Source of the DNA: Gemmatimonadota bacterium
GTDB lineage: Bacteria > Gemmatimonadota > Gemmatimonadetes > Gemmatimonadales > GWC2-71-9
Direction of reading: 5' to 3'
Assembly: GCA_036679605.1 (NCBI GenBank)
Contig: JAZDCZ010000419.1
Coordinates: forward strand, 128,001 to 192,000
DNA: 64,000 nt
The notes below the pieces were generated by a model. That model saw only the letters and a list, made by a program, of their open reading frames with translations, had not been told where the DNA came from and searched no databases. Shown here in pieces: positions 1-3,615 of the stretch. The position numbers were made by a program, and so were the translations under genes. Numbering within the stretch: position 1 is the stretch's first letter; each line of letters opens with the position of its first letter.

Positions 1-1952
1 GTTTCCCCCGCGCACGCGGGGATAGACCGGCCTTGGGTCGTACGAGCGATCCCCTGCCCTGGTTTCCCCCGCGCACGCGGGGATAGACCCTGACTGTCGC
101 ATTAGCGCTCGAGGCCTCAGAGGTTTCCCCCGCGCACGCGGGGATAGACCCTTCTTTCACGTCTTCGAGCACGAGCACCTCCGGTTTCCCCCGCGCACGC
201 GGGGATAGACCCCATTGACGTACATCCAGCTCCCACCATCCTACGTTTCCCCCGCGCACGCGGGGATAGACCCGTTATGCAAGATGGCCCTGTCTCGATC
301 TTTAAGTTTCCCCCGCGCACGCGGGGATAGACCCCAGAACGGTGAGAGAGCCAGATGACGTATACCGTTTCCCCCGCGCACGCGGGGATAGACCCAGCAC
401 GCCAGACTGACTCCTCGACCCCTTGACGTTTCCCCCGCGCACGCGGGGATAGACCGTGGTATTAGTGGCGGAATTGAGGCGGGACGTGGTTTCCCCCGCG
501 CACGCGGGGATAGACCTACGGCGAAGCGGATGCGGTTGACTGGGCCAGAGTTTCCCCCGCGCACGCGGGGATAGACCCTATCATGCCGCAATCCTAAACG
601 GTGAGGAGATGTTTCCCCCGCGCACGCGGGGATAGACCGTAGCCGGAGTCGACCAAGCGCCGAAATGATCGGTTTCCCCCGCGCACGCGGGGATAGACCC
701 TAGGTGTGGCCGGTGGGCCGCATACCGGGACGGTTTCCCCCGCGCACGCGGGGATAGACCCTCGCCTCCCTGGTGCATCGACCCGCAGACGTAGTTTCCC
801 CCGCGCACGCGGGGATAGACCCGTCCCTGTCTCTCGATGTACTCCCCGATCCTCGTTTCCCCCGCGCACGCGGGGATAGACCCGCGACGCGTGGGAGCGC
901 GCCCAGGAGAAAGCGGTTTCCCCCGCGCACGCGGGGATAGACCCACATCCAAGGTGCTCAAGCTCAATAATGCTGCGTTTCCCCCGCGCACGCGGGGATA
1001 GACCGTGGAGCGGAAGAAGGCCAACGAACACACGCCCGTTTCCCCCGCGCACGCGGGGATAGACCCTAATAGCATCTTACGCCACGTCTCCAACCATAGT
1101 TTCCCCCGCGCACGCGGGGATAGACCGTCTAAATAGTTGACCGCTCGATCACGACGTAAGTTTCCCCCGCGCACGCGGGGATAGACCCAGAACATCTTGG
1201 TCGCCTTCGGACAGATCATGGTTTCCCCCGCGCACGCGGGGATAGACCCGTGGTTGGCAATGGACTCTTACTCGTTGGGGTGTTTCCCCCGCGCACGCGG
1301 GGATAGACCGTGTTTCGGTTACGCGAGCTACGGATCTAATCCGTTTCCCCCGCGCACGCGGGGATAGACCCCAGAGAGAGCTGGACGTGGCGAACGCCTT
1401 CACGTTTCCCCCGCGCACGCGGGGATAGACCGTATACGAACCAACTTGGAAAGTGGCTGCCCGGGTTTCCCCCGCGCACGCGGGGATAGACCGTCCAAAC
1501 CTCGGCCCTGGACTGGGTGATCGTGGTTTCCCCCGCGCACGCGGGGATAGACCGTTTGGTCGACGCGATTCAAACAACGGCGTTAGGTTTCCCCCGCGCA
1601 CGCGGGGATAGACCCCAGACACTTTCACCCTCATACCCAGAATCCCAGTTTCCCCCGCGCACGCGGGGATAGACCCTCAGCGGCGGTTATTCCACCCACG
1701 GCATACGTGTTTCCCCCGCGCACGCGGGGATAGACCCCGTGATAGTGTGATGGCCGAGCGGGACTCTGTGTTTCCCCCGCGCACGCGGGGATAGACCCCA
1801 AGCAGAGGCAACGGCATGGTCTGACAATCCGTTTCCCCCGCGCACGCGGGGATAGACCTTGTATTGCCGCCCGGGGTGTCCCCAAATTGAGGTTTCCCCC
1901 GCGCACGCGGGGATAGACCCTTCTCAGTCTGTAGGTCCTTGAGGGGCGTCCC
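1..1952 (+). CRISPR. Type I-E-like CRISPR array, 32 identical repeats GTTTCCCCCGCGCACGCGGGGATAGACC with 33-nt unique spacers; probably continues upstream of the window
   Basis: Repeats start at 1, 62, 123 ... 1892 (exact 61-bp period). Hairpin CCCCGC-GCAC-GCGGGG. Resembles E. coli-type I-E repeats in transcribed orientation. Confidence 0.98.
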
Positions 1953-2049
1953 GTTTCCCGCTCGCACGCGGGCGTGGATTGAAACACGGTGATTGGCCGC
2001 TTTGCCAGCTCCGCAGGTCGCCCGCTCGCACGCGGGCGTGGATTGAAAC
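1953..2049 (+). CRISPR. Two 33-bp type I-C-like repeats (first is an I-E/I-C hybrid) with a 31-nt spacer, fused to the end of the I-E array
   Basis: 1953-1985 GTTTCCCGCTCGCACGCGGGCGTGGATTGAAAC; 2017-2049 GTCGCCCGCTCGCACGCGGGCGTGGATTGAAAC. GTCGC...GTGGATTGAAAC is the typical I-C repeat signature. Confidence 0.9.
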
Positions 2050-2289
2050 GGTATGCGTAGTCTCCTAGTTCAATTGTCGATGGCCAGATCTGTGTAGTTT
2101 TCGATGGCCGGTGACAGGGATAGAACCATTTGACGGTGGAGCTTGCACAATGGGTAGACGTTCGCCCCGCGCCCGCTGGAGCGGTGGTGAGCTCGTTTCT
2201 TGCCGTGAACGTATATCGTTCATGCCGTGAAACATCTCGCCACGTCGGCTGCGTCAAGCCGTGTTGGTCACCGATGCCAACCCTCCGCA

Positions 2290-2691
2290 TCAGACCACGT
2301 CAGCTACACCCAACCCCGCGATCCGCTCGGCGAGCCTACGGTCCGCCGTCACCAAACGGCAACCCAACGTGAGCGCCAGAGCCACGTAGCTCGCATCGTA
2401 AACGGTGATCTCATGCGTAAGGGCGAGGTCAAGCGCGGAGCGGTATTCGCGGTCGCCCAAAGCGAAGGTCTCCACCTCGAGTCCCGCGAACCGCTCGTAA
2501 CCCGAGCGCGCAGCTTGTGAATCCAGCGAAGCACCGCACGCCAGGACATTCGCGACCTCGTAGTGCAAGAGTTCCGGCGCCGCCGCCGCCACCCGCCCGC
2601 TCACATGATCGCCCAGAAGATCCTGGTAAGATGTGGGAAGCGGTTCCCGCAGGAGCCACCCCAAGACTACCGAGGCGTCCAGCACCCTCAC
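2290..2691 (-). CDS. vapC: VapC/PIN-domain toxin
   Basis: VLDASVV, E-VAN, VYDASYVALA and LVTADRRL PIN motifs. GTG start overlaps the antitoxin stop (GTGA). Confidence 0.9.
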   Translation of the reverse strand: MRVLDASVVLGWLLREPLPTSYQDLLGDHVSGRVAAAAPELLHYEVANVLACGASLDSQAARSGYERFAGLEVETFALGDREYRSALDLALTHEITVYDASYVALALTLGCRLVTADRRLAERIAGLGVADVV

Positions 2692-2960
2692 CGTCGATTC
2701 CGGTCGTCTCGAACGAGCCCGACGGGATCCGCCTTCGCGATCCGGGAAGCGTATTCCGCCCGCCACTCGGCCACGCGCGCCGCCGCCGCATCGAGCCGCT
2801 GCACCCTGGACGAGATACCCGTCTCGTACCGCTCGGCCGGCACCAGCACGACCAGCGGCCGGTTGCGCCGAGTGATGAGAACCGGCTCGCCACCATCAGC
2901 AACATCATCCAACACCCGCCCAAGCTGCCTCCGCAAAGCCAATGCACTGACACTCTTCAT
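2688..2960 (-). CDS. Phd/YefM family antitoxin
   Basis: MKSVSALALRRQLGRVLDDVADGGEPVLITRRNRP; directly upstream of the PIN gene. Confidence 0.9.
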   Translation of the reverse strand: MKSVSALALRRQLGRVLDDVADGGEPVLITRRNRPLVVLVPAERYETGISSRVQRLDAAAARVAEWRAEYASRIAKADPVGLVRDDRNRR

Positions 2961-3157: not shown

Positions 3158-3547
3158 CTATTTCGTAACGTCAGGCCCCGGGCTCGCCAACATCGCGACG
3201 AGCACGGACCACAGCTCGGCCAGCTCGAACGGCTTGGCCATGTAGCGGGCGCCGTTAACCCTCGCGAGGTCCTGCGGAGGCCCCAGCGCGCTCATAAACA
3301 ACACTCGAACCGTCATTCCGGGCCGCTCTCGCCGAATCGCCTGCCACATTCCGAACCCGTCTAACAGGGGCATCGATATATCCGACACGATGGCATCAAA
3401 GCGCTCCCGGCGAAGCAGCTCCAGCCCCTCAAGACCATGCTGCGCCTCTCGAACGTCGCAGCCTTTCAAACAGAGAAAGCGCACAAGTACCCGCCGCACC
3501 GCGTTGTCGTCCTCAACTACGAGAATCCTCGGACTCGCTGGGGTCAC
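3158..3547 (-). CDS. Single-domain response regulator (receiver)
   Basis: ILVVEDD, SDISMP..DG, MSA and KPF motifs. Start placed at GTG 3547 (uncertain). Confidence 0.88.
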   Translation of the reverse strand: MTPASPRILVVEDDNAVRRVLVRFLCLKGCDVREAQHGLEGLELLRRERFDAIVSDISMPLLDGFGMWQAIRRERPGMTVRVLFMSALGPPQDLARVNGARYMAKPFELAELWSVLVAMLASPGPDVTK

Positions 3548-3615
3548 GAAATGCTCCGGACAAGTCGAAACTGCACAAACTGCACGCCGAGAATACCCTC
3601 GGCGCCCGCGCCGAG

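Follow-up and report, generated by a model that had tools for sequence, protein, structure and literature searches.

The stretch of DNA analysed here, referred to as the window, is 64,000 nt long (G000:C357:128001-192000) and lies on a 266-kb chromosomal contig of a metagenome bin (G000) of 6.7 Mb in 434 contigs, with a completeness of 96.5% and a contamination of 6.3%. Upstream of the window we found an intact type I-E operon, cas3-cas8e-cse2-cas7e-cas5e-cas6e-cas1e-cas2e, followed by a short leader (operon and leader at about C357:116480-125195) and the array. All 8 of the 8 operon genes scored above the NCBIfam cut-off, cas3 by way of its core and HD domain models. As located by array detection and gene profiles, the array comprises 78 identical 28-nt I-E repeats, the last 32 of which, with their 33-nt spacers, occupy positions 1..1919 of the window on the forward strand; 76 of the 77 spacers are 33 nt long. 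The full gene set, together with a 28-nt hairpin repeat of 61-nt period behind a leader, places the system in type I-E. Since the operon and leader are located upstream of the array, the tail in the window is the trailer end, at the opposite end of the 78-repeat array, as the initial annotation had proposed. Among the first bases of the spacers (n = 77), C was the most frequent (48), ahead of G (17), T (11) and A (1), which suggests that the resident I-E PAM ends mostly in C, unlike the PAM of the E. coli system, which ends in G according to the section cited (PMC8482600).

A de novo array search detected no second array in this genome. Two additional cas1 genes were observed: one encodes a 796-aa RT-Cas1 fusion (L003:97-2753, on G000:C130), behind which stands a 90-aa ORF, possibly cas2 though with no family match, and no array was found near it on its 5.4-kb contig; the other is a solo cas1 homolog, 482 aa long and extended at its C terminus (L004:1018-2466, on G000:C365), with no cas neighbours in the stretch read. 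We considered these genes as possible signs of a second effector and rejected them, as in the stretch read neither has an array or I-C genes beside it.

The final perfect I-E repeat, at 1892-1919, is followed by spacer A (1920..1952, forward strand, 33 nt), the last one in the I-E register. Exactly 61 nt on stands a hybrid repeat (1953..1985, forward strand), in which 7 letters are as in the I-E repeat and the last 29 as in an I-C repeat, with a 3-nt overlap. The hybrid is succeeded by spacer B (1986..2016, forward strand, 31 nt), for which no target was found, and by an intact 33-nt I-C repeat (2017..2049, forward strand), giving an I-C period of 64 nt. These elements lie where the initial annotation had placed them, and the identities it had reported were reproduced on recomputation, the hybrid matching the I-E repeat at 21/28 positions and the full I-C repeat matching it at 19/28. 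The hybrid and the full I-C repeat show 2 differences in 33 positions and have 29 contiguous identical letters in common. The sequence described earlier as common to all the repeats is present as a 10-mer at positions 11-20, which is also the longest contiguous stretch common to the I-E and I-C repeats, though the crossover lies outside it, in the CCC overlap at positions 5-7. At this locus taken by itself, the hybrid call depends on two letters that stand in the exact 61-nt register.

The full I-C repeat is predicted to form a canonical hairpin with a 7-bp stem, a 6-nt loop and an 11-nt 3' handle, and the hybrid is predicted to fold otherwise, with the I-C stem lost. Cas5d is expected to require the I-C stem, and Cas6e its own hairpin and an 8-nt handle. 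The intact repeat is identical at 32/33 positions to the array repeat beside an I-C-like operon with cas1c in one relative (G417), and at 29/33 to that of another relative (G007), where it belongs to a canonical cas3-cas5c-cas8c-cas7c-cas4 locus. Its 64-nt period is within the 62-66 range of I-C arrays of the same family, and its best plasmid matches were arrays of Nitratidesulfovibrio vulgaris (4 of 5 records). Judged from these matches, the foreign tail repeat is of the type I-C class. The I-C-like operon of G417 (L148:6832-18277, on G417:C9) is itself divergent: its cas5c and cas7c fell under the cut-off, its 737-aa large subunit had no NCBIfam match, and two ORFs without an assignment, of 428 and 259 aa, stand before cas3, cas4 and cas1c.

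Beyond the intact I-C repeat lies a stretch of 67 nt (2050..2116, forward strand) that matches nothing in the other loci fetched; it is too long for a single spacer and may represent the flank of a lost I-C locus or fused spacers. It is followed, all on the forward strand, by a decamer matching the 3' end of the I-E repeat at 9/10 positions (2117..2126), by spacer D (2127..2159), which at 33 nt is in exact I-E register, and by a decayed terminal I-E repeat (2160..2187) that matches at 17/28 positions, with 16/20 over its first 20 letters (2160-2179). Aligned as a single repeat, the 2160 stretch was marginal, its score being reached in 12/500 shuffles. The decisive result came from a paired in-register test of the decamer, 33 nt and the 5' part, which was designed after the sequence had been inspected: the site scored 25/30, a value reached in 0/2000 shuffles, and was the best in the genome outside the array (the next scored 23), while spacings of 31-35 nt otherwise gave 18-21. 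A contig from a run of a different study (X3) covers 2024-2422 at about 92% identity, with 33 differing letters. With the 25 of these 33 differences that were listed, the decamer becomes 10/10 and the first seven letters of the terminal repeat go from 5/7 to 6/7; the other 8 could fall near either end. Spacer D differs in the X3 contig at 6 or more of its 33 positions and, by this comparison, is not conserved. The decamer fits the ending of the resident I-E repeat, an ending found in only 1 of the 21 other I-E arrays fetched (G543 left out), and seven further I-E arrays listed for the family have other endings. The distal piece is thus probably the resident array's own old end. Read from these repeat matches, the order of the tail is I-E, I-C, I-E, and the return to I-E beyond the I-C unit is new here.

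In the related strain represented by X3, 28 other letters with a hairpin are joined to position 8 of the I-C repeat, beside the crossover point of the window. We considered these letters as another repeat family and rejected this, as no array with the motif was found in 301 family genomes, which contained 4 single two-mismatch matches, with 1 control match. To the right of the tail, on the reverse strand, are a PIN-domain (VapC-type) gene (2290..2691, PF01850), a Phd-family antitoxin gene (2688..2960, TIGR01552) and a response regulator gene (3158..3550), at which homology to a genome of the same genus, G001, resumes. Toxin-antitoxin pairs stand on both sides of the CRISPR cassette, Phd-VapC (2290-2960) and MntA-HepT (L001:3761-4412). 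In an uncontrolled count, 8 of 33 other junction loci also had toxin-antitoxin-type genes at a distance of about 1 kb or less.

Typing of the cas genes, which the initial annotation had recommended, showed that the genome holds the full I-E set, and neither profiles nor tblastn detected cas5c, cas7c, cas8c, cas4 or cas1c. Among the profile matches there was no Cas7 of the I-B/I-C kind, no Cas8c and no I-G Csb1, and the sole Cas5 was Cas5e; the PF09709 and PF09617 profiles matched none of the control genomes either. When the genome was searched by tblastn, 6 query proteins taken from G007 and G001 had no match in it, and 8 taken from G417 had two weak matches, one of them to a stand-alone cas1. 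As the assembly is fragmented, genes may be missing from it. No other copy of the I-C repeat was found in this genome at 5-6 mismatches. The I-C part of the tail is also without a leader of its own and has, in place of a multi-spacer array, one spacer fused to the I-E array.

We also compared the locus with that in relatives. In G001, the left flank matches that of the window genome: the formate dehydrogenase genes are 82-84% identical at the protein level, a TPR gene is 41% identical, and a 217-nt segment matches up to 100 nt before the cas3 of the window genome. After this left flank G001 carries a type I-G csb1, broken off by the contig end, indicating that the slot carries different subtypes within one genus. 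The right flank of G001, with the response regulator and its neighbour, is on a separate contig, without the array and without the toxin-antitoxin pair. We found no relative in which an intact I-C locus occupies this slot.

Junctions between subtypes were found to recur in many microbes unrelated to one another; genomes marked unpublished (G114, G543 and G580) underlie none of the conclusions. A forward scan with one exact pattern (an I-E end, 45-65 nt, and an I-C-type end) over 185,579 species genomes returned 18 loci, 15 of which were true switches from I-E to I-C-type repeats; L027, L030 and L038 were dropped by eye as chance or unclear. Six of the 15 have in-register hybrid repeats, as judged by reading, and nine are joined within a spacer. 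Ten loci retain one foreign repeat, three retain two and two retain seven, and at every junction locus the foreign repeats lie on the downstream side of the switch. The reversed pattern, run over metagenome contigs, returned 74 loci, of which 31 were true by reading (24 distinct ones after removal of duplicates) and 43, including L040, L097 and L109, were left out by eye as chance or unclear. In 12 of the 24 distinct loci the hybrid, again by reading, is I-C-type in its 5' half and I-E in its 3' half; some of the upstream repeats there are 36-37 nt long and possibly of a type other than I-C. As the two scans covered different collections, their rates are not comparable. Overlaps of 3, 6, 9 and 4 nt were seen at four junctions, and 3 of the 7 measurements gave no clean overlap. 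The reciprocal junction that a single-crossover integration of a circle would be expected to leave was found in 0 of 16 genomes, including the window genome.

Among the 15 forward genomes, most of which are incomplete bins, cas5c was found in 4 and cas7e in 6. G069, G075 and G065 have an I-E operon upstream of the array on the same contig, as does the window genome. Two of 16 forward loci, namely the window and L032, go back to I-E past the foreign repeats. Two single-contig genomes with an I-C system elsewhere, G063 and G068, carry cas-less mixed arrays of 6+7 and 4+7 repeats (L127:12400-13250 and L128:12070-12800, respectively); G063 has both cas5c and cas7e, and the two arrays are candidates for dual reading. 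The hybrids of L026 and L077 stand out of register, with repeat halves present twice, a pattern that fits crossovers at short overlaps. L030 and L038 are unrelated I-E arrays, each with a 33-nt spacer that starts with the 12-nt end of an I-C-type repeat; these spacers look as if they had been acquired from another CRISPR array.

Taken together, these results suggest, with a probability that we put at about 0.7, that an entire I-C locus was once at this place, that recombination between look-alike repeats removed it and that the two I-C repeats are its non-working relic. What we observed directly is the anatomy of the tail, a genome with no detectable I-C genes, junctions that recur, and another subtype at the slot in a relative; from these we infer the order of events, the route of recombination and the lack of function, as follows. 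An I-C locus would have come to stand, in the same orientation, before the final I-E unit, which, cut off in this way from its array, would have decayed. Later, an I-E repeat would have recombined with a look-alike I-C repeat (21/28 alike) by a crossover at the 3-nt overlap, removing the I-C genes, the leader and most of the I-C array; the I-E array would thereby have become attached to the final I-C spacer and repeat. This step may have been a deletion within one chromosome or a swap with DNA of a relative; in the latter variant the exchange would be anchored in the common left flank, as in homology-facilitated illegitimate recombination (described in the cited part of PMC6382021). Today, cleavage of the pre-crRNA by Cas6e is presumably confined to the 78 I-E repeats, with the tail carried along as an uncut passenger.

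Several observations lead to this lost-locus interpretation. The I-E operon upstream is complete, the tail repeat belongs to a class that serves I-C loci in relatives and resembles the N. vulgaris plasmid arrays, and we found in the genome no effector gene of I-C or I-G and no further copy of the repeat. Decay is layered, the proximal I-E repeats being perfect in 78/78 cases, the I-C copies identical over 29 nt and the distal I-E repeat reduced to 17/28, and the distal decamer fits the resident repeat ending. Junctions recur in both directions, with 13 of the 15 forward loci keeping only 1-2 foreign repeats, and short overlaps are present at the 4 junctions given above. The I-G csb1 behind the common left flank in G001 and the odd 67-nt stretch following the I-C repeat also fit. 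Against the same interpretation stand the two-letter basis of the hybrid call, the 3 of 7 junctions without a clean overlap, the lack of a relative with an intact I-C locus at the slot, where the G001 contig ends inside csb1, and a fragmented assembly in which I-C genes could be missing, with two profiles (PF09709 and PF09617) that matched no control genome. In addition, as only 2 of 16 forward loci return to I-E, the nested history may not be general. The initial annotation had suggested that an I-E locus displaced an I-C locus by recombination within the repeats. The recombination relic itself is supported by the missing I-C genes, the two-way recurrence and the other subtype at the slot in G001, whereas simple displacement is incomplete as an account because of the decayed, resident-variant I-E pair beyond the I-C unit.

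The main rival to the lost-locus interpretation is that two illegitimate crossovers put a short patch, about 160 nt of an I-C array, into the next-to-last I-E repeat in place of its middle part; the donor would have been a neighbour or a mobile element, the I-C operon would never have been at the slot, and the tail would again be non-working. Such an event would account for the I-E letters 1-7 to the left of the insert and 19-28 to its right, as if one repeat had been split, and for a distal ending that fits the resident variant. L032 likewise returns to an I-E ending, and a contig of run X1 contains the I-C repeat with other flanks, so that a donor of this type existed in that community. However, none of the 15 forward loci shows the upstream array continuing intact behind the foreign repeats (patches inside an array may be lost more quickly), and at the slot in G001 the whole subtype changes. 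The I-C repeats are also undecayed, yet the X3 contig already has most of the full I-C repeat with the same flank at about 92% identity. On balance we regard a short patch as unlikely, though as deserving more weight than any other rival.

We next consider that the tail may be functional, either as a mixed array serving two effectors or as a crRNA-like regulator or decoy of the cas operon or of the adjoining toxin-antitoxin genes. The canonical predicted fold of the full I-C repeat is in favour of a function, as is the use of common arrays by co-occurring systems elsewhere (in the account given in PMC8482600), and the mixed array of G063 combines 6 I-E repeats with 7 others, 5 of them identical to the main I-C repeat of that genome, with cas7e elsewhere. 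But in the window genome the effector genes found were those of I-E only, and the hybrid is without the I-C stem. The suggestion in the initial annotation that one pre-crRNA feeds two Cascades is therefore unsupported here, none of cas5c, cas7c, cas8c, cas4 and cas1c having been found. Its suggestion of a regulatory crRNA fared no better: in 0 of 16 tests (four spacers by four promoter regions) did the match between spacer seed and promoter exceed that of shuffles, an earlier set gave 0/4, and the tail spacers lack the match to a cas or toxin promoter expected of a regulator of the CreA/crlRNA type. Spacer D, differing at 6 or more of 33 positions in the X3 contig, also argues against a conserved role. 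Neither a promoter-like nor a terminator-like site was found in the tail, and its fold was no better than that of shuffles (z = -0.8). Matches of the tail spacers to their own genome included nothing convincing as a self-target among those listed; no exact 19-mer of spacer B was found in viral contigs, phages gave one weak repeat-level match, and exact matches of the I-C repeat and of the junction pattern in viral contigs numbered 0 and 0. A function of the tail in this genome is accordingly judged quite improbable, and the feature is most likely inert. Dual use may hold in G063, where cas5c and cas7e are both present.

We consider it more improbable still that the tail is an assembly chimera of the arrays of two organisms in one metagenome. 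The source is a metagenome bin with measurable contamination, and the I-C repeat is present in another contig of run X1, which may be the source sample. In X1, however, a 92-nt contig over 1895-1986 spans the junction at a depth of 18.9, in line with its neighbours (15.6, 18.4 and 18.1), and no alternative joint was among those listed. This evidence is at the level of contigs rather than reads; runs X2 and X4 gave scattered cover only. Moreover, the I-E and I-C repeats have at most 10 contiguous letters in common, both flanks of the locus match the same-genus G001, and spacer B is absent from all other arrays fetched. Lastly, terminal repeats of CRISPR arrays are commonly degenerate, but ordinary decay of terminal I-E repeats into a chance likeness of I-C is ruled out by the identity to real I-C arrays (32/33 to the repeat of another genome), by the 29 identical letters common to both copies and by a 33-nt length with a clean I-C fold.

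Among the instances of this recurrent recombination scar between CRISPR subtypes, the tail is one of the fuller ones. How one subtype replaces another at a locus has mostly been deduced from gene trees. Subtype junctions of the present kind are the breakpoints themselves; they can be found by a simple two-motif search, and they tell which system came last. For annotation, it follows that an odd terminal repeat may be foreign rather than worn. We raise, as a tentative possibility that is more doubtful than the lost locus itself, that look-alike hairpin repeats serve generally as crossover points by which entire CRISPR-Cas systems move into and out of one slot, the array tails layering earlier systems (I-E, I-C and I-E here, with I-G in the sister genome). 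If this is true, then in genomes that retain both effectors, perhaps including G063, a single transcript of a fused array could supply two Cascades. The probable inertness of the tail limits the importance of this particular locus.

A literature search, covering mainly openly accessible main texts, returned no account of arrays that switch subtype. In their cited parts, Ou and McInerney 2022 (10.1101/2022.05.19.492656) and Kupczok et al. 2015 (PMC4524480), to both of which PMC12282179 gave the route, describe array histories reshaped by deletion and by recombination between repeats, with the ends retained. The recombination documented there is between near-identical repeats of one system, differing as point variants, whereas the window junction unites two subtypes at 19-21/28 identity, with a whole system missing. 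Homology-facilitated illegitimate recombination, as reported in the cited section from transformation experiments in other bacteria (PMC6382021), combines a homologous anchor at one end with a microhomology crossover at the other, and would yield the window junction if the I-E cassette came from a relative; nothing in the window favours that route over an internal deletion.

CreA, crlRNA and Racr are crRNA-like regulators or solitary repeat units. The tail resembles them in being a short, partly degenerate repeat-spacer unit beside cas and toxin-antitoxin genes, and differs from them in that it has no promoter match, no conserved spacer and no promoter-like site of its own, and in that its repeat was not found in viral contigs. 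With type I-C (Dvulg) loci it has in common the 33-nt repeat length, the 7-bp stem and the 11-nt 3' handle, but it is without I-C cas genes or a leader, has one spacer, and its first copy is stemless. Arrays common to co-occurring systems (PMC8482600) and the Vibrio III-B/I-F hybrid locus (PMC6360697) are, as far as the cited passages describe them, alike in that two subtypes meet at one locus; there, one repeat type serves two effectors or the genes are mixed, in contrast to the two repeat types in one array and the one effector found here. The relevant part of a further report (10.1101/2020.01.15.903914) concerns separate arrays. For type V-A in Francisella, the cited part of Shmakov et al. 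2023 (10.1101/2023.03.03.530964) describes a terminal repeat that remains after loss of the locus and is proposed as a target for recapture through recombination. The window remnant is alike in being a leftover terminal repeat; in the Francisella case the same system returns, whereas the remnant described here is fused in register to the live array of another subtype.
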